Numbered from the stretch's first letter, positions 47,796-63,069 are shown. The stretch: DNA of 64,000 nt from Candidatus Poribacteria bacterium (GCA_965215265.1 OZ244048.1:1408001-1472000), one strand, 5' to 3'. The notes: generated by a model from the letters alone, not told the origin. Numbers and translations are program-made.

Positions 47796-47864
47796 GGTAC
47801 TTTTGTCGGAGTCGGCATAACAGAACCCGCAAAATTCAGGGAGTTTTTAATGCGGTGTTCCGTC

Positions 47865-48821
47865 TCATTGGGTTAACAACTTCAGGAGTTCTGCTTTGGT
47901 TTCGGCATCTAAGGAGCGTAAATCTTCTGAACTCAGCCCAGCCAGTCGTTCTTCCGGTGTGATGCCCTGGAGCCGTTCTTCCGGTGTGATGCCCTGGAGC
48001 CGTTCTTCCGGTGTGATGCCTTGGAGCCGTTCTTCCAATGTCATGCTCTGCAGCTGTTCTTCCGGTGTGATGCCCTGGAGCCGTTCTTCTAGTGTCATTT
48101 TTTTGAGCAAGTCCGGGCCCATGACATCAATAATCCGCCGGAGCTGTTTATCGTATAAATTCTCTCTTTTTGCCATTTTGAAGACCTCCATTGTGATTTC
48201 TGGCGCTACCCGCGCCGCATAGGAGAGGTAAGCCAGATTATCCTCGCCGATGAGCTGCTCGACAAACTGGTAAAACTTCCGTTTGGACGAGGCAAAGAGC
48301 AGCAGGGGGTAATTTTTCGCCACCAGTTCCAATTCATTACACACAAATAGGTTGACAGGCAATAAGTCCGTGCTTTGATAATGCCCGATACCTACGGAGT
48401 CCCACTTCACATCAGATGGGCAGCGGCTCAACACGTTTCTGGGTTGACGCGCGGAGACGATTGTCACCGTCATGTCAGCTGCCGAGAGTTTCTGCTCGGC
48501 CAGGTAGAGGTGGCTGCGCCCACGAATGAGGTGGTATCCGTCTCGTGTGAGAGCATCGGCTTTGCCTTTGAATTCAATCTGATTGTAGCGGCGGAAATAG
48601 TTGAAAGCGGTTTGCGTCTGAACTCTCTCCCGCTGTTGAGCGGTTTCCAAGACGAGCAGCGCATCGATGGTGCGTGGGAGCCGGCTCACCTCCACTTGTG
48701 TTTGGATAGGGATGGCGAGTTGCCCGAAGTTCACTGTCAAAACTTCTTTGAAGACAGGGTCAAGAAAATTGCGTTCGCTTGTTGGGTTATCAGTCGCCAT
48801 TACACCTTTACACCTTTCCAT
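47865..48821 (-). CDS. Divergent PD-(D/E)XK / Rpn-like protein with C-terminal 9-aa repeats
   Basis: IDALLV...IEFK nuclease-like motif; TPEERLQGI repeats; internal GGAGGT-N7-ATG at 48176. Confidence 0.6.
   Translation of the reverse strand: MERCKGVMATDNPTSERNFLDPVFKEVLTVNFGQLAIPIQTQVEVSRLPRTIDALLVLETAQQRERVQTQTAFNYFRRYNQIEFKGKADALTRDGYHLIRGRSHLYLAEQKLSAADMTVTIVSARQPRNVLSRCPSDVKWDSVGIGHYQSTDLLPVNLFVCNELELVAKNYPLLLFASSKRKFYQFVEQLIGEDNLAYLSYAARVAPEITMEVFKMAKRENLYDKQLRRIIDVMGPDLLKKMTLEERLQGITPEEQLQSMTLEERLQGITPEERLQGITPEERLQGITPEERLAGLSSEDLRSLDAETKAELLKLLTQ
47940..48097 (-). repeat. 27-bp coding tandem repeat (about 6 copies)
   Basis: ccgttcttccggtgtgatgccctggag units and variants. Confidence 0.85.
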
Positions 48822-48985
48822 CTCTACAATCTGATAGTGCGTAACTGCTTTGTGTTATTATATCGTATTTTGGCGCAAATTGCAAGCAAAATCCGGGGTG
48901 AGGTGTGGTAGCATTCAGCACGAAACCTATGCGCAAGCCGCCTCGCACTTTCTATTTACCTTGGCATAACAGCAGCCTCTCCTTT

Positions 48986-51900
48986 TTATGAAGGCTGTCC
49001 ACTCTCATCATCAGATTCAGGCATTACCTGATGAGGTAAGCGCTCAATGATTCTGGTTGATTGGACGCTGATGTAAACGATGCGCTCTATGGCTGTTATC
49101 AGGTCTCGTGGATGCTCGAACCAGCCGTTGGCATCGTTGATGATGCCACTCTCCTTGTCCTGCTTGATGCGATACCTGTCTATAAACCACTCCAAGGGGG
49201 TTCTGCCGTTGACCAGGTAACGATGCGCTTCTTCCGGGATACCGGTCAATTGGACGTGTTCGTTGAGCATCAGCGTTGTTTTCTGCGGCTTATCGGCAAA
49301 TCGCATGGCCCGGGTGCCGAGCCGAAAATGCTGCGGTTGCGGCACGCCCTGTTGTGCGAAAATAAGTTCCAACGGAATGCGTTCACCCGTCTCGTAACTG
49401 AGGTGGAGTTCGGCGAGTCTGGAGCCCGCTTCCGCGAAGGCGTGGAAATCGGGTGCAAACGGGATACGTGGTAACATCTTGGACAAATCGTTGGCGAATT
49501 GTTCTCTATAACAGGGTGCGTGGAGGAGCCCGTAAACGTAGTCGAAGATGTCGTCTTTCGTGATTGACTTGTCGCTATAGTGGTTCCGAAACGCGTGCAA
49601 TGCGGTGTCCGAGATATTGTCAATCCGTTTGGGTGAATCGTCAGCACGGAGAAATGAGCCAGCCGCGTCTGACTTATCCGAAGGTTTCGGATATTGCCAC
49701 CGTGGGAAGCATTGTGAGCCACTGTTTAAACCGAGATCTGGCATCGTATCTGTCATCAACACGGAAAAGGGAGTTTTAGTTCCAATACCAGGGACACATA
49801 TCACACGATTTTCGCTGGAACTGTCTGGGAAAATCTTGTGCATCTGGTACCGCCTCTGTATGAACGTGTAATCTGTGTAACAATTTGTGGCAATGAAAGG
49901 TCGGTACACAACCTTTTGGATATAACTCTCATTAAATGCGGTTTTTCTCCTCCGCCTTAGGTCGTTCTCAAGATCTATATTCCACTTAATGTTTGTGGCG
50001 TAGCGGTTGACGACCTCCGCTATTGTTAATTCCGGGTTTTCTTCAAGTTTAGAGAGTGCGGCGAGGTAGTCTTGCGTCATCTGTCTTGCATTTTCAGCAC
50101 ATGCCTCGCGAGAAAAATTGTAGAGGTATGCGTCTCTGCCTGTTGCCAATCCCATAGAATACAGCCTAAATATCGCATCGTCTGCCTTACCAGCCTTTGC
50201 CTGCTTTGTCCCCAGCGGATAAAATTTACTAAACGCTTCACTGCGCTGCTCAATCCAATCGTGGTGGGCATTAGGCGTAATGGTTTGCCAATCGTTGAAC
50301 CCTTTTATAGAACCTGCCTCGCGGAGTGCGTCCAGTTTTTCCTCGCGGGTGAGATAGTCGCCGATGTCACGGTAGTGGATGCGGCATCCGTCATGGGAGG
50401 CGTTTGGGTTTTTGACAAGGATTGTAATAGCAACAGGGGCCCGTGAGCCTTGACCGAACACCTTGCCGCCTTCGCGACGTGAACGTTCCCCCTGAGTTCG
50501 TTGATTCCCTCGCAGGTTTAGGACGTGGATGGAACTAAACTCTTCTGCGAAACAGGCGCGGATGCCTGCATCGGCGTTTCCGTCAATCCATGAGCCGTTG
50601 GTGACGAAGGCGATAATTCCTTCTTTTTTGATTCTATCGGATCCCCAGCGGATCGCCATCTTGTAGGTATCATAGAGGTGTCTTGTATTCGTCACCGTAG
50701 AGGATTCAACGTAGGTTTCTCTGACACGGTTTTCAAGTTCGGGATAATCAATGTTGGGGTTGTCGTCGGCTGCGCTCCGCTGTCCTACGGACCAGGGTGG
50801 ATTGCCGACGATGACCTGGATCGGGAGTTTCTGTTGCCGTTCGGCACGTTCGTTGTTGTCGGGCAGCCACTCCTTCGGGAAAAGGGTGGGAGCTTCTTCC
50901 TTGTTCAGGTTGAACGTATCCGTCAGCACGATGCCCTTAAAGGGTTCGTACGCGCTGTCTTCTCCGTGCCGGCCACGGAACGCTTCTTCTATATTCACGG
51001 CGGCGATGTAGTAGGCGAGCAGCACGATTTCATTGGCGTGGAGTTCCTCCCGGAACTTGCGCCCCACATCGTCCGGGTGGATAAGCCCAGATTGTAACAG
51101 TCGGACGGGAAAGATGCCGGTGCCCGTAAACGCATCCAGCAGATGCACTCCTTCATCGCTGAGGCATCGGCCAAATTCATCTCGCAACACCTCCTCGGCA
51201 CTGTGCAGAATGAAGTCTACAACTTCAATCGGTGTGTAGACGATGCCGAGGCGTTGTGCGTCTTTCTCCAGAGCGGTGGCGAAGAATTTCTCGTAAAGTT
51301 CCAACAGAACGCGTTGTTTGCCTTCGCTGTTGTCTATGCCGCGTGCACGGAGTTGGACGCTCTCGTAGAAACGGGCTAAATCGCGTGTTTCGTCCTCCAA
51401 GCCGAATTCGGCGAAATCGGACTGGAGGCTGTTTAGGGCAATGGCGACGGGGTTACCGGCGGCGAAGTCGTAATGCTCAAAGAGTGCTTCAAAAACAGGG
51501 CGTGTCAAGATGTGCTGTGCCATCATCTCTATGGCGTTGCTCTGGGTGATTGAGGCGTTTATTGAACTTTGCAATTCTGTATGGAACGCGTCGAACCATT
51601 CACGCAGTGCCTCATTTTCGAGGGTATTGAGTAAGCCTTCAATTCTTGCGGTGACTCGCAAAAAAATATCGGCGACATCCTTTGCCCAGCTCTCCCAGTA
51701 TTTTCTGTCTCCGCAGTTCTCAACGATTTTGGCGCAGATGGCATCGGCGGGAATCTCCAGGGGCAAAAAGAGTTGTTGCGCGTTTAAGGCAGCCGGGGTG
51801 TCCGTGCCATCTCCATCAAGGTTATATCCGGTGAAGATTATCCGAGGGGTGGGGGTGTTGTTGAGGTCTATTCTGTTGATTTCGGCGTTGAGCCTGTCGT

Positions 51901-53824
51901 CGTGTGAGCGGAGGGCGCGGAGAATCTTCCACACTGCGGCGAACCGGTTATTGTCGTTGAGAATATTGGCCGGATCTGCGCCTGCGGGTATTGCCACCGG
52001 CAGGATGATGTAGCCGTACTGCTTGCCGGGCGCTTTACGCATCACACGGCCGACTGCTTGCACGATGTCCACGTGCGAGTTCCTCGGGGCCATGAAGAGC
52101 ACTGCGTCGAGGGCGGGGACATCGATGCCTTCGGTGAGACACCGTGCATTTGAGAGAATACGGCAAACCCCGTCAGAATCACCCTTTAACCACTCAATCC
52201 GTTTTTTGCGGGCGAGCGCATTATCTTTTCCATCCACGTGCTCGGTTTCGCACTTAAAGTTGTGCGGGCGGTGCGCGTCCGGCATTCGTTCTATAGCACT
52301 CTCTATAACCCCGTCCCAATGTTTCACAAGGTTCTTTGACGCGGCGATGGTGTTGGTGAAGGCGATGGCACGGGTTAGCGGTTTGATTGCCGCATCGTCA
52401 GGGGTTTTTCTTTCCGGGTTTTGGAGGGCACGCCAGCAGCCTACAATCTTCGTCGCGTCGTTAATGTTAAGGGCGCTGCCACCGGATGTGCGGTATGTCT
52501 GCAGCGCTGCATCCGCATTAGGTTCGTATATGGAAAGCACGACAACCTTGTAGTCAGAGAGCAGATCTTGTTCGACGGCTCTAGAGAAGGGCAGGTAATG
52601 GAATGCTTCGCCGTAGGTGTCCGCATCGTCCATAGAGAACACTTCAATATCATGGCGTGCGGCTTTTGCCTTCGCGCTTTCGGTATAGAGGCGTGAGGTA
52701 GCCGTCATGTAGAGGCGCTTCTTGGCATGGATTCGGGCGTTGTCGTGTACCAGTATAAAGTGAGAAGTGTCTTCATCTGAGGCTGCGATGCCTGTGGTTC
52801 GGTGTGCTTCGTCGCAAAGGACGATATCAAACGGCGGGGCGGCTGCCGCTTGTGCTTGTTCGACGATGGGGAGTGAATGGTAGGTGCAGAACACGACTTT
52901 CATAGTGTCTGTGTCTCTTTTCTGAAGCGCTTCAGAAATCACATCGGGCGCTGTCGTCACAGGTATTTCCAGCTCTAGGATGGATGCATCCTCGGTGGTT
53001 TTCCCGGCTCGGGTATCGGAACAGATACCGATGTAGCGGTGCGGGATGGCCTGTTGTTCTGCCCATTCTCGCATCGCTTGTGAAAAGAGCCCGATGGAGG
53101 GCACGAGGTATAGCACCCTGCCACCGACACCGGCGATAGCCTCGGCAATGCGGAGCGCCGTGAACGTTTTGCCGGTGCCGCACGCCATCAGGAGTTTGCC
53201 ACGGTCGGAATGTTTGAAGCCGTTGATAACGTCATCAACCGCTTCTTTTTGATGCGGGCGGAGGCTGAACTTTTCTGGTTGAGAGTCGAGTTGTTCGGGC
53301 GCTTGCTCGGCGAGGTCGGGCCAGTTGACGGGGCGGCTGGCGAGTTCGGCGGCACTGAGGCGTTGGCAGGGCGGTTGCAAGCCGTCGAGAGTCCTATAGA
53401 CGTTCGCACTCCAGCTGTCGCTGGTGTCAACGAACAGGCGCGCGGTGAAGGGCGCACGACCGGATGCCGAGATAAAGGTGTCCACATCTTGTTTTCTGAT
53501 ACGTGTGTTTTCAGCGTAACATTTGCACTGGATTGCGCAGTAGCCGCCTTCGCGTTCTTCCGCTACCAGGTCGATGCCGATATCCACCCCATCGAACTCT
53601 GGGCGAAGCGCTGCCCATTCAGCCCAGAGATACACATCGGAAAACCGATTTTTATAGAAGGCATCTTCAAGCAGATAGCGCCGGATTAAACGCTCGAAAA
53701 GTCTGCCGACTCCGTATTGGGTATTCGCATTTTCGCGAATGTAGTGGAGGGCGGTGTAGAAGCCGTTATCTTTTTGTTCGGTTCCGCTTTGTAAGTCTAA
53801 GTAGATTTGTGTGGTTTCTGACAT
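48986..53824 (-). CDS. Type ISP (single-polypeptide, LlaGI/LlaBIII-like) restriction-modification enzyme
   Basis: N-terminal Mrr-like GIDLVA..IQCK; SF2 MACGTGKT, DEAH, QAVGRVMR; MTase DAFTGTG and GNPPW; C-terminal recognition region; 1612 aa. Confidence 0.9.
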   Translation of the reverse strand: MSETTQIYLDLQSGTEQKDNGFYTALHYIRENANTQYGVGRLFERLIRRYLLEDAFYKNRFSDVYLWAEWAALRPEFDGVDIGIDLVAEEREGGYCAIQCKCYAENTRIRKQDVDTFISASGRAPFTARLFVDTSDSWSANVYRTLDGLQPPCQRLSAAELASRPVNWPDLAEQAPEQLDSQPEKFSLRPHQKEAVDDVINGFKHSDRGKLLMACGTGKTFTALRIAEAIAGVGGRVLYLVPSIGLFSQAMREWAEQQAIPHRYIGICSDTRAGKTTEDASILELEIPVTTAPDVISEALQKRDTDTMKVVFCTYHSLPIVEQAQAAAAPPFDIVLCDEAHRTTGIAASDEDTSHFILVHDNARIHAKKRLYMTATSRLYTESAKAKAARHDIEVFSMDDADTYGEAFHYLPFSRAVEQDLLSDYKVVVLSIYEPNADAALQTYRTSGGSALNINDATKIVGCWRALQNPERKTPDDAAIKPLTRAIAFTNTIAASKNLVKHWDGVIESAIERMPDAHRPHNFKCETEHVDGKDNALARKKRIEWLKGDSDGVCRILSNARCLTEGIDVPALDAVLFMAPRNSHVDIVQAVGRVMRKAPGKQYGYIILPVAIPAGADPANILNDNNRFAAVWKILRALRSHDDRLNAEINRIDLNNTPTPRIIFTGYNLDGDGTDTPAALNAQQLFLPLEIPADAICAKIVENCGDRKYWESWAKDVADIFLRVTARIEGLLNTLENEALREWFDAFHTELQSSINASITQSNAIEMMAQHILTRPVFEALFEHYDFAAGNPVAIALNSLQSDFAEFGLEDETRDLARFYESVQLRARGIDNSEGKQRVLLELYEKFFATALEKDAQRLGIVYTPIEVVDFILHSAEEVLRDEFGRCLSDEGVHLLDAFTGTGIFPVRLLQSGLIHPDDVGRKFREELHANEIVLLAYYIAAVNIEEAFRGRHGEDSAYEPFKGIVLTDTFNLNKEEAPTLFPKEWLPDNNERAERQQKLPIQVIVGNPPWSVGQRSAADDNPNIDYPELENRVRETYVESSTVTNTRHLYDTYKMAIRWGSDRIKKEGIIAFVTNGSWIDGNADAGIRACFAEEFSSIHVLNLRGNQRTQGERSRREGGKVFGQGSRAPVAITILVKNPNASHDGCRIHYRDIGDYLTREEKLDALREAGSIKGFNDWQTITPNAHHDWIEQRSEAFSKFYPLGTKQAKAGKADDAIFRLYSMGLATGRDAYLYNFSREACAENARQMTQDYLAALSKLEENPELTIAEVVNRYATNIKWNIDLENDLRRRRKTAFNESYIQKVVYRPFIATNCYTDYTFIQRRYQMHKIFPDSSSENRVICVPGIGTKTPFSVLMTDTMPDLGLNSGSQCFPRWQYPKPSDKSDAAGSFLRADDSPKRIDNISDTALHAFRNHYSDKSITKDDIFDYVYGLLHAPCYREQFANDLSKMLPRIPFAPDFHAFAEAGSRLAELHLSYETGERIPLELIFAQQGVPQPQHFRLGTRAMRFADKPQKTTLMLNEHVQLTGIPEEAHRYLVNGRTPLEWFIDRYRIKQDKESGIINDANGWFEHPRDLITAIERIVYISVQSTRIIERLPHQVMPESDDESGQPS

Positions 53825-54292
53825 ATTAGTTCTTTTCAGCTCCTTTGCGAACGGGGATGTAGGGTCTTCGGAAGGATTGTTGTTGTGGTGCTTGGCGTGT
53901 CAGGGTGCCGTTCTGGAGGTGAGGGATATCTGGAATCAGCGGCGGCGGCGCTAGTGGCAGCGCTGCGAGCAGAAAAAAAGCCTGCCCTGTGCTTGAGGGT
54001 GCCAGTGGGCAGGCGTGCAGTCGAGTGAAAGTGAAGTTGAGGCGAGCTGGTGATGCGCGAGAACTTAACAGATATAAGGGGGGGGGTAAATCGTTCTTTT
54101 TGCTGACGGACCCGGCAGATGGCAGTTATCGGCGGCAGCCGCAATGTGCGTGAATCTCGATTGAGTGCTTGCGTGCAACGGCAGCGCGGTATTGAGAGAG
54201 AGGACAGATTTTACTGAAGTGCTAAGAGTTATATGCATGAGCGTTATGGTTACCCTCGAGGTTGGAAACCCTTACCTGCCGAGGCAGGGCGT

Positions 54293-54407
54293 GTTTCCTA
54301 ACTTGCGAGTTGAGAGGCTTTTGATTTCAAGATTGTACTACATTTTATCAATAATGTCAAGTTAAAAATTGTTTCAATCTCGTTATCGAGAGGCTTTTGA
54401 TTTCAAG
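54293..54407 (-). CRISPR. Degenerate repeat-spacer-repeat unit detached from the main array
   Basis: Repeat 54371-54407 has 3 mismatches to consensus. Repeat 54293-54331 keeps 20 nt of it plus a GAAAC end. The spacer is 39 nt. Confidence 0.7.
54332..54360 (-). promoter_or_regulatory. Consensus sigma70 promoter inside the terminal spacer
   Basis: Minus strand TTGACA-ttattgataaaatgtag (17 nt)-TACAAT. Confidence 0.65.
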
Positions 54408-54594
54408 TTCTGAATAGGAACAGAACGTGTACCGAGATAAGCAAATTGCTTTGCTTGGCATCTAAAAGCTTATCGGCGGCTAACTCTCCTGCGTTCTCAC
54501 GGTTGACATGGTTGTTGTCATAGTGATGTGCCAGTTTTCCATCCATTCCTATATGCACCGCCACAATATGCCCATCTTCTGTCATATCACTCAT
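54403..54594 (-). CDS. Short ORF, probably truncated; stop codon supplied by the CRISPR repeat
   Basis: AAGGAG-N8-ATG overlapping the end of the upstream gene; TGA lies inside repeat 54371-54407. Confidence 0.45.
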   Translation of the reverse strand: MSDMTEDGHIVAVHIGMDGKLAHHYDNNHVNRENAGELAADKLLDAKQSNLLISVHVLFLFRT

Positions 54595-55210
54595 CTATTT
54601 TACTCCTTAAGTTTTTGTCATCCCACTCCATAGGGGTAAGGCGTTTGAGTAGCCATGCCGCACACCATGCTTTAGAGTTGGTCGGATGATGAACATCTGC
54701 ATTTTCTAAAAGATATGCACGTTCGTCGTCCGTGAGCTGGAGTGCTTCATAGATAGGTAGCCCTGTAATGTTTTCAATCGCTTCTAAATGCATCAGGTTG
54801 ATAGGGTAATAATCATCTACCCTGTTTGCCTTCTTAGAAAGATCTAATCCGTCTCCGCCGTATAGCCCGCGAAGTGTCAGCATTTGCTTCCGCAATGCAG
54901 GGATGGCTTGATGGAGTTTTAGGTAATCGGCTAATTGAATCGCTATCTGGGACCCTTCCGAAATGCGTCGGCAGATGTCGGACGCAATCCAACGCCTGTT
55001 TCTCATCAGCCACTGTAGTTGTTCGGCCGTAAAGGAAATCCCTAACGGGGTGAAATAGTCATCATGCAGTTCATCAAAAAAAACGGCTCCTATATCGTCT
55101 CTAAGCCCAACCGATAGTGGTTCAGGCGTGGGTGGTGCCTGCCCGGAAGGGAGTGCACAAGAAAAAATGAACGGCAGGAACAAGAAGAGGAGATGTCGTT
55201 TTTTTTTCAT
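54587..55210 (-). CDS. Hypothetical lipoprotein located between CRISPR repeats
   Basis: 207 aa; AAGGAG RBS; MKKKRH, hydrophobic stretch, then IFSC lipobox-like motif. Confidence 0.7.
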   Translation of the reverse strand: MKKKRHLLFLFLPFIFSCALPSGQAPPTPEPLSVGLRDDIGAVFFDELHDDYFTPLGISFTAEQLQWLMRNRRWIASDICRRISEGSQIAIQLADYLKLHQAIPALRKQMLTLRGLYGGDGLDLSKKANRVDDYYPINLMHLEAIENITGLPIYEALQLTDDERAYLLENADVHHPTNSKAWCAAWLLKRLTPMEWDDKNLRSKIDE

Positions 55211-55249
55211 AGGATGCTCCTTTTAATTTTAGCATGCTCGCGTCCCTCA

Positions 55250-58200
55250 ATGCCAATATCGTTATCGAGAGGCTTTTCATTTCAGGCGAGCAGTAAAGAC
55301 ACCATACGGATTAACCGGTGCATCGTTTCAATCTCGTTATCGAGTGGCTTTTCATTTCAGTTCAGCACGTTCCTCTTTACACACACCACATTTACGTTTC
55401 AATCTCGTTATCGAGTGGCTTTTCATTTCAGGTTTTGTGCATTGTATGCATGAATTGACTCTTCGACAGTGTTTCAATCTCGTTATCGAGTGGCTTTTCA
55501 TTTCAGGCTCATGATAATCCTCCTATCATGCCGCGGGCCTTGTCTGCAGTTTCAATCTCGTTATCGAGTGGCTTTTCATTTCAGGTAATTCTAAAGGAGA
55601 ATTATTATGACGTTCTATGTGTTTCAATCTCGTTATCGAGTGGCTTTTCATTTCAGGCTGGACAGCAACCGTGGAAGGTGTCGCCAACACGACACTAGTT
55701 TCAATCTCGTTATCGAGTGGCTTTTCATTTCAGGGCGGTTTTTCATAACCGCCGGCACCTATTATTGACTGTTTCAATCTCGTTATCGAGTGGCTTTTCA
55801 TTTCAGGTGCGGTATTCAAAGTCTTCTGGAGTTAAGATACGTGTGTTTCAATCTCGTTATCGAGTGGCTTTTCATTTCAGGGCTAATAATTTCGTAATCG
55901 GGGGGTTGCGTGGTCGGCTTCGTTTCAATCTCGTTATCGAGTGGCTTTTCATTTCAGGGAAATCCGTCCGGGTGTATATCAAGCATCATATGAGTTTCAA
56001 TCTCGTTATCGAGTGGCTTTTCATTTCAGGTGAAAAAATTGCAGAGATTATGAAAATGAATCGCTTAAGTTTCAATCTCGTTATCGAGTGGCTTTTCATT
56101 TCAGGTTCCATAAATGCTTATGACCCTCTCTTTTCCGAATTAAGATTGTTTCAATCTCGTTATCGAGTGGCTTTTCATTTCAGGGTCAAATTCGCTTTTA
56201 TGCTTAAATAAGTGTGATAAAGTTTCAATCTCGTTATCGAGTGGCTTTTCATTTCAGGAACAGAGTATAAGTCCCTTGGCTGCATCGCCACGATGTTTCA
56301 ATCTCGTTATCGAGTGGCTTTTCATTTCAGGGCAAAAAGGCAGTTGTGCTGCGATTTGCTTGAAGCTGGGTTTCAATCTCGTTATCGAGTGGCTTTTCAT
56401 TTCAGGCTGGTGATTCTCAACGAATTTGATGTCTTCCAATAGGTTTCAATCTCGTTATCGAGTGGCTTTTCATTTCAGGAATTCAAATCTCGCTACATTG
56501 TATCATTGCGTCATGTTTCAATCTCGTTATCGAGTGGCTTTTCATTTCAGGGCCGGACTGTTTTCAAATACATTTTCATTGACAGAGTTTCAATCTCGTT
56601 ATCGAGTGGCTTTTCATTTCAGGTCTATTGGGCGGATGCTGACAATTTTATCATTCATGTTTCAATCTCGTTATCGAGTGGCTTTTCATTTCAGGAGATG
56701 GACATGAACGTGAACATCAACGCACTTTTAGAAAGTTTCAATCTCGTTATCGAGTGGCTTTTCATTTCAGGAACCTTGTTTTGAAAAGAGAAAGGGGGGT
56801 ATGATTTCATGTTTCAATCTCGTTATCGAGTGGCTTTTCATTTCAGGATTGAGAATGAAAGTGTATTTTTCATTAAGTTTAGTGAGTTTCAATCTCGTTA
56901 TCGAGTGGCTTTTCATTTCAGGAGAAAATACGAGATTCAAAATTCACTAACAAAACTGTTTCAATCTCGTTATCGAGTGGCTTTTCATTTCAGGTAAATG
57001 TCTCGAAGATTACCATGTCTGTCAAAAGAGTCAGGTTTCAATCTCGTTATCGAGTGGCTTTTCATTTCAGGTACAAACCTCGCAGACAGACATCTGCTGA
57101 AAGTATTAGGTTTCAATCTCGTTATCGAGTGGCTTTTCATTTCAGGCTATGCGGTTGGACAATCTGTCAGTAGCATGCATACAGAGGGTTTCAATCTCGT
57201 TATCGAGTGGCTTTTCATTTCAGGTTCCAGTTCGGGGGTGCTGACGGCAGACATTGAATTCGGGGCGTTTCAATCTCGTTATCGAGTGGCTTTTCATTTC
57301 AGGTTTTTTTAGCCTCAGTCTCCTCGCCCAAGCCACTCGCAGTTTCAATCTCGTTATCGAGTGGCTTTTCATTTCAGGGTCTGGCACGGGGTGGGTGGAA
57401 AATTCTTCTTATGACAGTTTCAATCTCGTTATCGAGTGGCTTTTCATTTCAGGTGATAAACCAATATGGTAGCCTCGCCCCAATTGCCCCCGTTTCAATC
57501 TCGTTATCGAGTGGCTTTTCATTTCAGGTTTTTCGCGGCAACGGCACGCTCTAGTGTCAGTGTGTTTCAATCTCGTTATCGAGTGGCTTTTCATTTCAGG
57601 ACAAGGGCAAGGTGGGCATACATGCTGGCGGTGAGTTTCAATCTCGTTATCGAGTGGCTTTTCATTTCAGGTGTACGCACAACCAAGACAGAAGAAGACA
57701 ACTACTACAACGTTTCAATCTCGTTATCGAGTGGCTTTTCATTTCAGGGTACGCTCTATGCAGTCTTTTGTGGAGGAGGTTAAACGTTTCAATCTCGTTA
57801 TCGAGTGGCTTTTCATTTCAGGTTCAACCCATAATCAACCAAGCATGCTGCAGCAAGTTGCTGCGTTTCAATCTCGTTATCGAGTGGCTTTTCATTTCAG
57901 GGTAGGTGCGAATTACGTTGAGACAGGTTTGGCTTATCTTGCGTTTCAATCTCGTTATCGAGTGGCTTTTCATTTCAGGATACGTCAGCGTCTCTATTGA
58001 ATGATTGACTGTGTCGTGTTTCAATCTCGTTATCGAGTGGCTTTTCATTTCAGGGGAAATGCGGCGGCGGTTGCATGAAGAGCAACTGGCATATGTTTCA
58101 ATCTCGTTATCGAGTGGCTTTTCATTTCAGGATAAATTTGACTTTTACGACAAAAGGTGGTATAATTATGTTTCAATCTCGTTATCGAGTGGCTTTTCAT

Positions 58201-60072
58201 TTCAGGTCTATTTTACTGCAGGCTTCATCTCTGTTTAATCGTATGTTTCAATCTCGTTATCGAGTGGCTTTTCATTTCAGGCAGGGTTGAAGTGCATCAA
58301 GGACGAATTCGAAACACTTGTTTCAATCTCGTTATCGAGTGGCTTTTCATTTCAGGCACCGATTCATATCCCCCCCAGAATCCACAGACGTAGCGTTTCA
58401 ATCTCGTTATCGAGTGGCTTTTCATTTCAGGAGATTTCAGAAAAGATATTAGATGCCGCCGTCATAGCTGTTTCAATCTCGTTATCGAGTGGCTTTTCAT
58501 TTCAGGTTTGATTTTGAATTAGAGAACAAACCTGAGGACATGGTTTCAATCTCGTTATCGAGTGGCTTTTCATTTCAGGATTTTAGACGGCGCAGTGTCA
58601 GACGCGCTTAGCAGTGTTTCAATCTCGTTATCGAGTGGCTTTTCATTTCAGGCATGATTCATGCACAAATGCTAGAAAACACAGTGAGTTTCAATCTCGT
58701 TATCGAGTGGCTTTTCATTTCAGGCGGCGGCGTTATCCTCATTGGACTTTTACACTCAGTTAGTTTCAATCTCGTTATCGAGTGGCTTTTCATTTCAGGG
58801 CTCAGTTCGGTTTTCATACGCGAAACAGGTATCGGGTTTCAATCTCGTTATCGAGTGGCTTTTCATTTCAGGCAACTTGCATTTTTCTATAAAATGCCTT
58901 CTGTTATAATTAGTTTCAATCTCGTTATCGAGTGGCTTTTCATTTCAGGCCATCTCTACCATCATGGCGGTATATTTTTCGAGATGAGTTTCAATCTCGT
59001 TATCGAGTGGCTTTTCATTTCAGGACAACGTGTCTTTGAAAACACCGTCCGTGCCACTGAATCCAGGTTTCAATCTCGTTATCGAGTGGCTTTTCATTTC
59101 AGGTACCATGTTTTTTGTTTACCTTTTTTCTAATGTATTATGTTTCAATCTCGTTATCGAGTGGCTTTTCATTTCAGGGGCCAGCGGCAGGATTGACATT
59201 GGGGGTTGGTTATTCATGTTTCAATCTCGTTATCGAGTGGCTTTTCATTTCAGGTTGATTTTATGTTGGTGGACAACGTCATTGTTATTGTTTCAATCTC
59301 GTTATCGAGTGGCTTTTCATTTCAGGTCCATGACGTAGGTGGTGCTGCGGGGTGTTCTGTCTTGTTTCAATCTCGTTATCGAGTGGCTTTTCATTTCAGG
59401 TCCCTTGGTGCCGTCCGGTGTTGGGCGGCACCTCGGGTTTCAATCTCGTTATCGAGTGGCTTTTCATTTCAGGTCTGTTAACGTCTGCCAGTCGTACAAA
59501 AACCTTTGACAAGTTTCAATCTCGTTATCGAGTGGCTTTTCATTTCAGGCCATTGCTTAACACCTCCAACATAGTTCTTTCTGTAATGTTTCAATCTCGT
59601 TATCGAGTGGCTTTTCATTTCAGGCTCGAAACGCTTTAGAAAGCGAATTTGACGCTAATTTGTTTCAATCTCGTTATCGAGTGGCTTTTCATTTCAGGTA
59701 TCTACAAGCACACAACCTGGACAAACAAGTGCAACGACGTTTCAATCTCGTTATCGAGTGGCTTTTCATTTCAGTTACAGGCCGCCATTGAGGCAGTTGC
59801 TTACAAGCAAGTTTCAATCTCGTTATCGAGTGGCTTTTCATTTCAGGCAGTGAAAGAATTGAAAACAGTCCGTAGAAGTCTGAAGTTTCAATCTCGTTAT
59901 CGAGTGGCTTTTCATTTCAGGTTCTAAAATTTCGGGAGGTACATGAATATTATCATAACCGTTTCAATCTCGTTATCGAGTGGCTTTTCATTTCAGGTAT
60001 TCAGACGCTTCTCTACCTCAAGCCCCTCAGAAGTCGTTTCAATCTCGTTATCGAGTGGCTTTTCATTTCAGG
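55250..60072 (-). CRISPR. CRISPR array: 64 canonical 37-bp repeats plus one degenerate trailer repeat
   Basis: Plus-strand repeat GTTTCAATCTCGTTATCGAGTGGCTTTTCATTTCAGG (minus strand ends ATTGAAAC). Counted by hand from 55325 to 60036; spacers about 34-42 nt; degenerate copy at 55250. Confidence 0.98.
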
Positions 60073-60298
60073 TCCGCCCGCCGGAGCTCACACTACGTCT
60101 TATTGCAATCGCAACATTTCTGTCAGTGTCTAATTTTGAAGTGATTGCACGCACTACTGTCACACATGGGTGCGTCATAAAGTAGATAGACATAAGACTC
60201 CAGCCACTTTCTGCCAGGGTGCAGGAAATTTTGGTCTCCTTCCGCTGACAGATTTTCTCCTTAGACTCTATTTTACACTATATATGATAATTTGTCAA
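60073..60298 (-). promoter_or_regulatory. CRISPR leader with putative promoter
   Basis: Between cas2 and the first repeat; minus strand TTGACA-N17-TAAAAT at 60298-60270, overlapping the cas2 3' end. Confidence 0.7.
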
Positions 60299-60545
60299 GG
60301 CCTTTTTTCACGCCGATCCGTTTTATCTGTTTTTCACAAGTTGTACAGAGATGATAAAACGTGAGGCTATCTTCTGTGGTGTCGATTGTGTTCTGCAGAC
60401 GGTGTTGTAGACGTAGGAAAGCACGGCGATCGGTGTTGCATTCAAAGACACTGTATTGGATGCGGGTGCCGAAATCCTGAAGGATTTTGGCGACGCGAAT
60501 CCGGCGGTTGTTATCGGTAATATCATAGGCGACAGTATAATGCAT
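60273..60545 (-). CDS. cas2: CRISPR-associated endonuclease Cas2
   Basis: YTVAYDI, FGTRIQYSVFEC; GGAGG RBS. Confidence 0.95.
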   Translation of the reverse strand: MHYTVAYDITDNNRRIRVAKILQDFGTRIQYSVFECNTDRRAFLRLQHRLQNTIDTTEDSLTFYHLCTTCEKQIKRIGVKKGLDKLSYIV

Positions 60546-60590: not shown

Positions 60591-62222
60591 TCACCGCGTG
60601 GTGAGTGGGGTATAGTCAGATATTTCACCTGTTAGGTATTTCGCTAGCAAGCGGACTTGTAATTCCATAGCGCGCCGAAAAGTGAGTTTATATTTGAATG
60701 CCGGATGGGTAATGGTCTCGTTTTTCCGGGTTTCATAAGCTGCGTAAAAAGTTTTCCGTGCACGTTCTTTGAGATACCAGCCTCCGTGTGCTTGTGTAAA
60801 GTCGTTTGGCGTGATCTGCTTGGTATTTATCAGTGTGATGACAACAGAGTCTGCGATAATCGGACGAAATTCTTCCATGAGGTCTAGCGCGAGACACGGT
60901 TTTCCGTATTTCAATTGGTGAAAGAAACCGATGTAGGGGTCTAGTCCAACGATCTGAATTGCAGACATCACATCTGCTGTTAGTAGCGAGTAGGCGAAGC
61001 TCAACAAAGCGTTGGTAGGATCAGCAGGAGGTCTGCGGCTCCGGTGTTGGAAATCGAACCCGAGTTCGGATTTGAGCATAAAGGGGAAGGATCGGAAGTA
61101 CGCGGCGGTGGCATTGCCTTCAATACCAAGGAGCTGCGTCAGATTTAGAGCATTCGCAACCCGTTTTTGCATGAGCTTGATTGATTTTATGCTTTCCAGC
61201 AAAGGGGCCAGGTCTGTTTCGATTTTGTTTCGCCATTTGCGTCGTTGGAGCATCAGTCGCATGTTTGCCAGCTTACCGTGAATGAAGGCTTTAGCAAGCG
61301 TTAACGCGTGTTCATTTATATTCGCGATTCTGTATTGTGCGGAGCGCAGAAGTGAATTCCGTGAGACTTGTGGTGTCAATGCGCCGTGATAACGCCCGTA
61401 TTTTGAGAGGAAGACCACGGGGATGCCATCGTGCAAAAGTGTCTGCATTGCGGGTGTAGTCAAATTGACGTTTCCGGCGATGACGACTTGTCCGAGATGA
61501 ATGAGTGGGATATCGCGTAGGACCTGGTTCTCTCGTGTGACGAGTATGCGTTGTCCGGTCTTTTTTATGGCGCATCCTTGTTCGTCAACGTAGAGGACGT
61601 TGTCAATGCCGAGTGCGGGTTTTATCCGCTTCGGGCGTTCATCCAATTTCTGTAGATAGGCGACCTCATCTGGCAGGCAAATAGGGCGTATGCTACAGCC
61701 GTTGCATCGGTTATCGTGAATCGGTTTTGGAATCTGCCTGGATTGAAGGAGAGCACGTGCCTGTGTGAGATATTGATGTGTTGTCTGGCGCAGTTCTGCA
61801 TCAAAGGGGACCTTGCGCCGCCGTTTGGAACCGATATAAAAGATGTAGCCGTGCGGGATGGATAGCCCGGTTTTTTCCTCCAAGAGTAGTCCCTGTAAGC
61901 AGAGTTGAACCTGATCGTTGATCCAATTTCCGATTCCTGCTTTTTTGAATTCAATTGGATAAGGGATTCCGTCTTTTTCCTCTACGAGATCTGTGTAACC
62001 GGAGACACCGAGTGCTTCTGAGGCGAGGTAAAGTCGTCGCGAGATGGTTTTATCGCCTTTACGGCGTGCGTGTACCTCTGTGTGGACATTCTCATGCTTA
62101 ATTGTGCCTTCTTCTATGTGGTGGTTGATGACTTGATGTCCTTCAATTGATTCATAATAGAATCGCCGTGGACAAAAAACGTAGGTGTTTATTTGTGAGA
62201 GTGGAATGTAGGTTTCAGACAT
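60591..62222 (-). CDS. cas1: Cas4-Cas1 fusion
   Basis: N-terminal Cas4 (FCPRR, IEFK, CNGCSIRPIC) fused to Cas1 (LLGIEG, NALLSFAY, LALDLMEEFRP). Confidence 0.95.
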   Translation of the reverse strand: MSETYIPLSQINTYVFCPRRFYYESIEGHQVINHHIEEGTIKHENVHTEVHARRKGDKTISRRLYLASEALGVSGYTDLVEEKDGIPYPIEFKKAGIGNWINDQVQLCLQGLLLEEKTGLSIPHGYIFYIGSKRRRKVPFDAELRQTTHQYLTQARALLQSRQIPKPIHDNRCNGCSIRPICLPDEVAYLQKLDERPKRIKPALGIDNVLYVDEQGCAIKKTGQRILVTRENQVLRDIPLIHLGQVVIAGNVNLTTPAMQTLLHDGIPVVFLSKYGRYHGALTPQVSRNSLLRSAQYRIANINEHALTLAKAFIHGKLANMRLMLQRRKWRNKIETDLAPLLESIKSIKLMQKRVANALNLTQLLGIEGNATAAYFRSFPFMLKSELGFDFQHRSRRPPADPTNALLSFAYSLLTADVMSAIQIVGLDPYIGFFHQLKYGKPCLALDLMEEFRPIIADSVVITLINTKQITPNDFTQAHGGWYLKERARKTFYAAYETRKNETITHPAFKYKLTFRRAMELQVRLLAKYLTGEISDYTPLTTR

Positions 62223-63069
62223 GTTGATCTCCTTGCTTTAAAGGTATGCGTTTTGTTTGTCCCATGCCCATAGTGGTTTTGTAGCCGGTGCCGGAATAAA
62301 GGGCAAAATCAGCCAACCAGTTAGCGGTATAGAGCAGGTCGAGGTTGAGTTTATCGGTGGGTTCAAAGCGGCATGTGCAGGTACCGATCCATCCGATCAC
62401 GGTGTATGAGCCGAAATTATGGGCGCGTGTGCGGGTATGGGCTTCAGAGAGGCGTGCGTGTGCGGCAATGAAGTTTAAGAGTTGCCTTTCATCAATCTGC
62501 ATCGGCGCGAAAGCATTCCATTTTTTGACCCAGCTCCGGTAGCATCGGACTAAGTCGACTTGGGTATGCGTATATGTCTTTTGCCCACGGGGGGTGAGTG
62601 CGCGGAATGAAGTAGGTGAATAGAATTTGATTCGGAATTGAGTTTCAGGGAGTGCGGATTGTACAATTTGGGTGTAGGAGGCGTTTGCACTCCAGGTTTG
62701 TGCTTCAGTAGCGTGTGAGACCCACTGTTTAACCTGAAACGTTGCTTCTCCCAATCGGATGGGTGGCATGGTAAGTGCCAAAAATGCCTGCCCAAATTCT
62801 GCAAAGAGCGCGTCATCTAAGAAGGTGAATCGGAGTTTGCAGTCGGTGCCGGCTCGGAGATGGATTCGGTTGTTGTGCGACTTGCCTTTCGCCTGAAGTG
62901 GTGAGACGGTGAAAGGCTTTTGTGAGGTTTGTGCGTGCAGTGCTGTCGCCAATTCTGGATTCGTCTGCTTCAGAATTGAGAGGAATGCGGCGTGTGCGTG
63001 GTGTCCCATGGTGGGACGGAGTGCGGCACCGGTTTGTGGTATGAGGGAAAGTACTGTGCTGATAGGCAT
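62215..63069 (-). CDS. cas6: CRISPR pre-crRNA endoribonuclease Cas6
   Basis: PFTVSPL, FYSPTSFR, G-rich loop SGTGYKTTMGMG. Confidence 0.93.
   Translation of the reverse strand: MPISTVLSLIPQTGAALRPTMGHHAHAAFLSILKQTNPELATALHAQTSQKPFTVSPLQAKGKSHNNRIHLRAGTDCKLRFTFLDDALFAEFGQAFLALTMPPIRLGEATFQVKQWVSHATEAQTWSANASYTQIVQSALPETQFRIKFYSPTSFRALTPRGQKTYTHTQVDLVRCYRSWVKKWNAFAPMQIDERQLLNFIAAHARLSEAHTRTRAHNFGSYTVIGWIGTCTCRFEPTDKLNLDLLYTANWLADFALYSGTGYKTTMGMGQTKRIPLKQGDQHV

Follow-up and report, generated by a model that had tools for sequence, protein, structure and literature searches.

The locus described here raises the question of how an intact gene came to lie between two CRISPR repeats, and whether the CRISPR-Cas system itself had any part in bringing it there. 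The window that was analysed, a stretch of 64,000 nt, corresponds to G000:C1:1408001-1472000 of a single-contig 4.83-Mb genome of a Candidatus Poribacteria bacterium and ends on the right with a type I-G CRISPR-Cas locus, which is encoded on the minus strand. The assignment to this subtype is based on a Cas4g/Cas1g fusion gene (60591-62222, minus strand; 629.8 bits with NF049935 at a cut-off of 560), on a fragment of Cas3g at the window edge (minus strand) and on the adjoining array, the effector genes lying outside the window. The Cas6 gene (62215-63069, minus strand) scores above the cut-off of TIGR01877. Directly upstream of the leader we find cas2 and the Cas4g/Cas1g gene. The leader itself is about 220 nt long (60074-60300, minus strand) and contains the promoter-like site TTGACA-17-TAAAAT (60298 to 60270). 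It is followed by the active type I-G array (55325-60073, minus strand) with 64 identical 36-nt repeats of the consensus sequence GTTTCAATCTCGTTATCGAGTGGCTTTTCATTTCAG, whose start-to-start distance of 71-79 nt implies spacers of about 35-43 nt. Transcription of the array from the minus strand is backed by the orientation of the Cas4g/Cas1g and Cas6 genes, by the promoter-like site of the leader, by the repeat ending in ATTGAAAC and by the decay of the repeats at low coordinates, and the trailer of the array is the low-coordinate end.

In transcript order the trailer consists of the oldest regular spacer S1 (38 nt, 55324 to 55287), a first variant repeat (55250-55286, the upstream repeat in the following), 842 bp of non-CRISPR DNA (55249 to 54408, the insert), a second variant repeat (54371-54407, the downstream repeat), the 39-nt fossil spacer S0 (54332-54370) and a degenerate terminal repeat of 39 nt (54331 to 54293), all read on the minus strand. 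The two variant repeats flanking the insert had been pointed out in an earlier note on this DNA and are indeed present, with five and three mismatches to the consensus, respectively, and with the GAGAGG variant in both of them; the terminal repeat had been missed. Between the upstream and the downstream repeat about seven positions differ. Four of the five mismatches of the upstream repeat fall within its last 10 nt in the sense of the transcript, that is into the base of the hairpin and the 8-nt handle: the G at the hairpin base is lost, which shortens the stem from 4 bp to 3 bp, and four of the eight handle bases are changed. Judged by its sequence the upstream repeat looks like a terminal repeat, because the changed hairpin base and handle are dispensable in terminal repeats, and we assign to it the role of working terminal repeat in the active array. 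The downstream repeat, which we regard as a fossil repeat, has the ATTGAAAC handle intact and a hairpin of 5 bp. The terminal repeat is identical to the downstream repeat in its first 20 nt (transcript sense) and diverged in the remainder; two substitutions are common to these two repeats and absent from the upstream repeat. A search of the region 53500-55600 against Rfam returned a single sub-threshold match (E 0.82).

The insert contains on the minus strand an intact gene for a protein of 207 aa (54587-55210). It had been described earlier as a lipoprotein-like gene with a ribosome-binding site, and our analysis agrees: a GGAG (55220 to 55217) lies 6 nt ahead of the ATG, within the 39 nt (55211-55249, minus strand) which separate the ATG from the upstream repeat and which had been estimated at about 40 nt. 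Among the differences listed for run X9 (see below), to which 15 further ones outside the listing have to be added, there is none in the region 55190-55286. The protein has a signal peptide, a lipobox MKKKRHLLFLFLPFIFS-C with Cys18 and a HEAT/ARM-like body that is all-helical. Pfam, NCBIfam and PHROG have no family for it. An exhaustive search, on the other hand, yielded relatives at E<=1e-3 in the form of 68 cluster representatives, most of which are lipoproteins with a length of about 200 aa, and the protein aligns with them from the lipobox Cys through the C-terminal WLLKRL motif; Cys18 is invariant in one alignment and matches the G-C lipobox of the family in another. By these alignments the 207-aa ORF is a complete member of this lipoprotein family, and its product is predicted to be a substrate of signal peptidase II and hence a bacterial lipoprotein. 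The AlphaFold (AF2) model (pLDDT 82) is all-helical and repeat-like. Foldseek found nothing at E<=0.001 for this model in the PDB, and a wide VIA-align search gave a best Z of 6.7 with VHS/ENTH- and HEAT-like helical repeats, a value below what is meaningful for helical proteins. In the ESM Atlas unnamed clusters came first, followed by HEAT-repeat clusters at 0.84-0.86, which we treat as leads only.

Members of the lipoprotein family occur in 28 of the 159 genomes of the order and in 14 of the 111 genomes of the same bacterial family; the family is missing in the same-genus genome G001. At the 15 loci inspected the neighbouring genes differ, and the CRISPR repeat is never found within 1.5 kb. 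Since the family is chromosomal and patchily distributed, with varied neighbours and no such repeat nearby elsewhere, we conclude that the lipoprotein gene is an ordinary chromosomal accessory gene which is intact at this locus. It is whole in every strain seen, including the X9-type protein (P0002), which also comprises 207 aa and is 96% identical, and is probably a working gene. Purifying selection may act on the gene, going by this one diverged strain with differences at 8 of the 207 residues.

The second ORF of the insert (63 aa, 54403-54594, minus strand) overlaps the lipoprotein gene by 8 nt and ends on a TGA inside the downstream repeat. The earlier note had considered it to be translationally coupled to the first gene. 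The overlap and the position of the stop codon are as described, but the ORF turned out to be a scrap of a NodB pseudogene, and the diverged strain X9 differs in this part. Longer relatives were found by six-frame searches of the genomes, whereas a word-index search gave none. Residues 4-41 of the ORF align with residues 72-109 of a 246-aa protein from genome G086 with 22 of 38 residues identical (58%, E 9e-12), and this protein as well as a 248-aa protein from genome G063 are polysaccharide deacetylases of PF01522 (E 1e-16). Most of the ORF (54472-54585, minus strand) is an internal fragment of a NodB-type polysaccharide deacetylase gene; the stretch of 64 nt between this fragment and the downstream repeat (54408-54471, minus strand) has no recognised origin. 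Of the deacetylase, 70 codons are missing on the N-terminal side and 135 on the C-terminal side. While a complete NodB domain comprises about 120-200 residues with an N-terminal Asp-Asp motif (TFDDGP), here about 38 of the approximately 246 codons of such deacetylases are left, and both the TFDDGP part and the entire C-terminal half are absent. The 63-aa ORF has no match in Pfam or NCBIfam, and the sole PHROG match has an E of 0.23. Further pieces of NodB were not detected above noise in other frames, nearby or elsewhere in the genome; a homology reaching upstream to 54657 was discarded, being weak and having two stops inside. Matches to the NodB fragment occur in 5 of the 159 genomes, G000 included.

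Going by this comparison the 63-aa ORF is a pseudogene relic and not a gene, and its seemingly coupled ATG just happens to be the earliest one in the fragment's reading frame. Because the NodB gene is cut at both ends and continues in its homologues, such as the 246-aa PF01522 protein, the insert is only part of what was once a longer gene segment, which bears out the suspected operon fragment and adds that its second gene is cut at both ends. NodB-type deacetylase genes for about 246 aa are found at L015 1057-1835 (G019), L054 781-2031 (G086) and L055 1300-2527 (G063), where they adjoin genes of small lipoproteins or membrane-anchored proteins of 157-160 aa without a Pfam family; the deacetylase gene of G019 is broken up into one ORF of 75 aa and another of 196 aa.

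For the strain comparison, contigs of four public runs from four studies (X1, X5, X6 and X9) were aligned with the region 53600-55800. Run X1, which may be the source sample of the window genome, contains one contig of 984 nt over 54369-55352 that includes both junctions and shows no difference. The low-depth contigs of X6 cover parts of the region, among them the junction at the upstream repeat. In X5 one contig extends over 54226-54637 and a second one over 54790-55360, each with one junction, and the second contig then runs straight into the leader, so that the same insert lies beneath a single-spacer array. The X5 strain is identical wherever these contigs cover the region, and its array runs from the leader through one repeat and S1, the only spacer, to the upstream repeat; one spacer as compared with 64 in the window genome means an array that has either collapsed or grown fast. 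The X9 contig of 1072 nt is about 96% identical, spans both junctions and covers 54223-54405 and 54584-55353, while 122 other letters replace 54406-54583. In this strain the gene and both flanking repeats are kept, and the spacer beside the upstream repeat and the rest of the array differ. As the diverged X9 strain retains the layout, the gene and both flanking repeats are older than the split of these strain lineages. The active array has turned over fully since then.

We consider it most probable, with a likelihood of roughly 60%, that the 842 bp go back to an old event in the trailer of one array, either an insertion or a rearrangement, and that subsequent erosion spared a useful lipoprotein gene. 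In the order of events that we infer, the starting piece would have been ordinary chromosomal-type DNA, with a lipoprotein gene and, behind it, a gene for a NodB deacetylase, and would have become part of one type I-G array at its old end, by entry or by recombination, between the present upstream and downstream repeats. Illegitimate or repeat-mediated recombination is the most likely mode of entry, and integration by Cas1-Cas2 is unlikely. The units downstream of the insertion, i.e., the downstream repeat, S0 and the degenerate terminal repeat, would thereby have become fossils and the upstream repeat the working terminal repeat of an array which has since been renewed completely from the leader end. 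Deletions would then have eroded the inserted DNA, reducing the deacetylase gene to about 38 recognisable codons and leaving the lipoprotein gene whole. The NodB fragment, cut at both ends and replaced in X9, fits the erosion of a longer segment. The age of the layout, the terminal character of the upstream repeat, the lack of marks of a mobile element or a foreign donor and comparable interruptions in three of ten related arrays (see below) speak for this reading as well. Some observations are less easily accommodated. The substitutions shared by the downstream and the terminal repeat fit two arrays equally well as a stepwise evolution of the repeats; both boundaries of the insert lie at or within a few bases of repeat ends, which a random illegitimate insertion does not predict; and for a gene that simply landed there it is odd to have no detectable promoter of its own. 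Neither an empty site, that is an array without the insert, nor a donor locus was found, and the insertion event as such is to be taken as probable.

The main rival explanation, which we regard as unlikely, assumes two tandem arrays. The main array would have ended at the upstream repeat, the genes would have lain between the two arrays, and the downstream array would have collapsed by repeat-repeat deletion to the one unit made up of the downstream repeat, S0 and the terminal repeat. In favour of this assumption the upstream repeat is degenerate exactly where terminal repeats are, the two substitutions shared by the other two repeats would be accounted for, and X5 demonstrates that one spacer is enough for this array to exist. 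Leaderless remnants are moreover present elsewhere in the genome. Two orphan units (C1:1786268-1786303 and C1:4672270-4672305) consist of a GAGAGG-variant repeat, a short spacer and a degenerate repeat and are located amid housekeeping genes without leader or cas genes, and a remnant of the terminal repeat is found at 3.43 Mb. The downstream repeat together with its flanks (43 nt) matches the orphan repeat at genome position 4,672,265-4,672,307, with 2 and 4 flanking bases included; save these 6 flanking nt, the three orphan units show no homology outside the repeats. However, no leader-like sequence could be detected upstream of the downstream repeat or of the orphan repeats, the longest word in common with the leader being 10 nt (at the downstream repeat). 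Over the approximately 7-18 kb around the trailers of ten related arrays, furthermore, no additional array with this repeat came to light, and relatives have clear insertions at the same position, such as the repetitive element in genome G017.

The remnant at 3.43 Mb is part of a duplicated block. The 6.5-kb block at 47825-54343 (minus strand) comprises a 318-aa ORF, a Type ISP restriction-modification gene (1612 aa, 48986-53824, minus strand), the 470-nt region upstream of this gene and the terminal repeat, and it is duplicated with 95% identity at C1:3,425,898-3,432,333, where the terminal repeat has a 15-nt deletion. We had considered the terminal repeat to be a half-repeat cut by this duplication; this was rejected, since the second copy keeps the distal part and the deletion is internal. 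The ends of arrays in this genome have evidently gone through several rounds of relocation, duplication and collapse. Three more Type ISP paralogues with 70-76% nucleotide identity are located at about 0.14, 0.91 and 3.16 Mb. The 318-aa ORF (47844-48892, no Pfam family) has further copies at C1:1346339-1347325 (88%) and C1:3425457-3425906 (84%) and may be a repeated or mobile gene. The surroundings of the array form a variable defence island: synteny with G001, a genome without an I-G adaptation gene, ends near 46.5 kb.

The earlier note had favoured a different reading, namely a foreign operon fragment captured as an oversized spacer or inserted at a repeat, with the array acting as a gene-capture platform. 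Spelled out, Cas4/Cas1-Cas2 would have integrated a kilobase-scale spacer at the leader-proximal repeat, thereby duplicating the repeat, and the unit would later have been pushed to the trailer. We think this improbable. In its favour there are repeat copies on both sides of the insert with the junctions at or near the repeat ends, and the variant seen in both repeats, GAGAGG, is the older one and makes up the consensus of the array in genome G007 as well. The length of 842 nt is nevertheless far from the approximately 35-43 nt implied for the spacers of all other units, and no donor or PAM is known. A foreign origin finds no support either. The insert has no match among 50,697 phage records and 72,556 plasmid records, no relative of the 207-aa protein turned up in the JGI metagenome contigs that were scanned with it, and these phage, plasmid and JGI databases, which are limited in extent, yielded no protospacer beside a PAM of the subtype in a foreign element. 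Instead, members of the lipoprotein family are chromosomal genes within the same bacterial family, and the GC content of the insert (46.2%) is to be compared with 48.1% for the genome. The insert is furthermore a deletion mosaic in which a whole gene is joined to an internal fragment of another one. As the earlier note had stated, transposase genes and terminal inverted repeats are missing; a target duplication is missing as well, and the insert is single-copy in the genome, so that it does not show the characteristics of an IS element, a MITE or a transposon.

Long repeat-flanked inserts are not confined to this array, and this could be taken as an argument for capture: including the present one they occur in 4 of 11 arrays. 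We compared ten I-G arrays of relatives, of which seven have no gap of more than 100 nt at their end. In the other three the last regular repeat is separated from a distal degenerate one by 0.7-1.25 kb of non-CRISPR DNA. In G022 the gap of about 700 nt (L062 7945-8681) encodes an 88-aa fragment of an N6 DNA methylase (PF02384, E 2.6e-15); two REP-like palindromes are also present. The gap of 1253 nt in G017 (L065 8718-9971) is mostly taken up by tandem copies of a repetitive element about 350 nt in length, for which that genome has 183 matches. In G031 the gap of about 800 nt (L067 8690-9551) consists of decayed repeat pieces. Long gaps thus occur in the trailers of related arrays, but none of the three contains an intact gene or a member of the lipoprotein family, and nothing ties the event at our locus to Cas1-Cas2, so that the idea of a gene-capture platform finds no support. 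The parallel in G017 in particular is a repetitive element that needs no Cas proteins. All interruptions are moreover situated at the trailer. Captures at random times would not lead one to expect this position; it would follow if the functional array stopped at whatever interrupts it and the units downstream then decayed and were deleted. In the trailer third of the G040 array (L068 3387-4127) a second repeat variant is found 10 times, differing from the array consensus at 8 positions, which suggests two array generations or a fusion.

A related and more general proposal is that the I-G arrays of this order repeatedly take up kilobase-sized DNA, as in the 4 of 11 arrays, by a repeat-directed process, either long-fragment integration by Cas4/1-Cas2 or the re-insertion of repeat-bearing circles, and that the lipoprotein gene is transcribed from the array promoter as a part of the pre-crRNA. 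To this we give little credence. The consensus scan of 53700-55500 revealed no sigma-70-like site ahead of the lipoprotein gene, as the earlier note had expected from the short distance to the repeat, and no terminator-like site on the minus strand. Judged from these signals, transcription of the pre-crRNA may run on into the gene, which, as the earlier note had stated, has the same orientation as the array (minus strand for both); this holds for the main reading as well. A promoter picked out by eye (TTGGCA, 19 nt, TGcTAAAAT; 55256 to 55226) was rejected, as its spacing is long and the start about 7 nt downstream would fall into the ribosome-binding site. The release of the gene from the pre-crRNA by Cas6, which had also been proposed, appears doubtful, because in the upstream repeat the hairpin base and the handle are mutated.

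It is very improbable that the unit formed by the downstream repeat, S0 and the terminal repeat functions as a mini-array like those of CreA/CreR, or that the gene is a selected CRISPR accessory with a role as regulator or safeguard. Such a function would agree with a spacer-like sequence between two variant repeats, with the handle and the 5-bp hairpin kept in the downstream repeat and with the conservation of the unit and the gene in a diverged strain. Yet the best matches of S0 in its own genome (4.8 Mb) are words of 13-14 nt, which is the level of chance, and do not provide the partial complementarity to a promoter that a CreA/CreR pseudo-spacer would show. Members of the lipoprotein family at the 15 other loci inspected are never within 1.5 kb of this repeat, related I-G loci are without the gene, and the unit is positioned at the trailer and not beside the cas promoter. 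S0 also carries a sigma-70-like site, TTGACA-17-TACAAT, which agrees with the consensus at 11 of 12 positions, is the best match in the scan of 53700-55500 and had not been reported in the earlier note. Through the terminal repeat this site aims at the Type ISP restriction gene, which follows downstream at a distance of about 500 nt. Nearer to that gene there is a weaker site, CTGACA-16-AACAAT, which the duplicate at 3.43 Mb has as well.

An assembly artefact joining unrelated DNA via the CRISPR repeats, which commonly cause misjoins, is a possibility that the earlier note had also raised; it has a practically negligible probability, as contigs from the runs of four studies bridge the junctions, X1 without any difference and the diverged X9 with the same layout, and as the upstream and the downstream repeat are unique variants, so that k-mer graphs pass through them.

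If the insertion into a single array followed by erosion is the correct reading, the locus would be a well-documented example of the ageing of a CRISPR array. Any interruption would fossilise the downstream units and turn the repeat just upstream into the new terminal repeat, and an array may turn over fully while its fossil end and the content trapped there persist across strains. For annotation the locus holds a warning: where the stop codon of an ORF lies inside a repeat, the ORF may be the scrap of a pseudogene. If, in contrast, the trapped gene depended on the array promoter or on Cas6, this would be a new way of wiring a host gene to CRISPR expression.

Several components of this picture are already in print, as far as the cited descriptions go: arrays split by IS elements or MITEs, eroding trailers and Tn7-like elements that target repeats. 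A narrow search of the literature gave no description of an intact non-mobile gene between CRISPR repeats, and we do not claim that such a case is unreported. The mini-arrays of CreTA/CreR (PMC10097628) resemble our locus in having a spacer-like sequence between two variant repeats outside a regular array. The locus differs from them by its position at the trailer, by the lack of a partial target in the genome and by the lack of an evident toxin partner. Tn7-like transposons that target CRISPR repeats in cyanobacteria carry tnsAB, tnsC and tniQ and mostly no cargo according to PMC11837452. They share with our locus the presence of foreign DNA inside CRISPR arrays, but neither these genes nor the ends of such an element are found here.

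The closest counterparts are interrupted and eroding arrays. PMC4852346 reports 59 curated cases of CRISPR arrays interrupted by IS elements or MITEs, and in the cases it describes, as in ours, non-CRISPR DNA divides the array and the distal remnant has the same repeat. The relative G017, with its repetitive element of 183 genome matches, corresponds exactly to this situation. Our insert, in contrast, lacks transposase, inverted repeats and target duplication, is single-copy and combines an intact gene with a gene fragment. Degenerate, eroding trailer ends are described for CRISPRDetect (PMC4869251), in terms of mutated repeats, partial deletions and overlong apparent spacers distal to the leader, and the trailer analysed here, whose terminal repeat is degenerate in its distal half, conforms to that description. 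The difference is that the long apparent spacer of our array does not hide decayed repeats; it encodes a full-length conserved protein.
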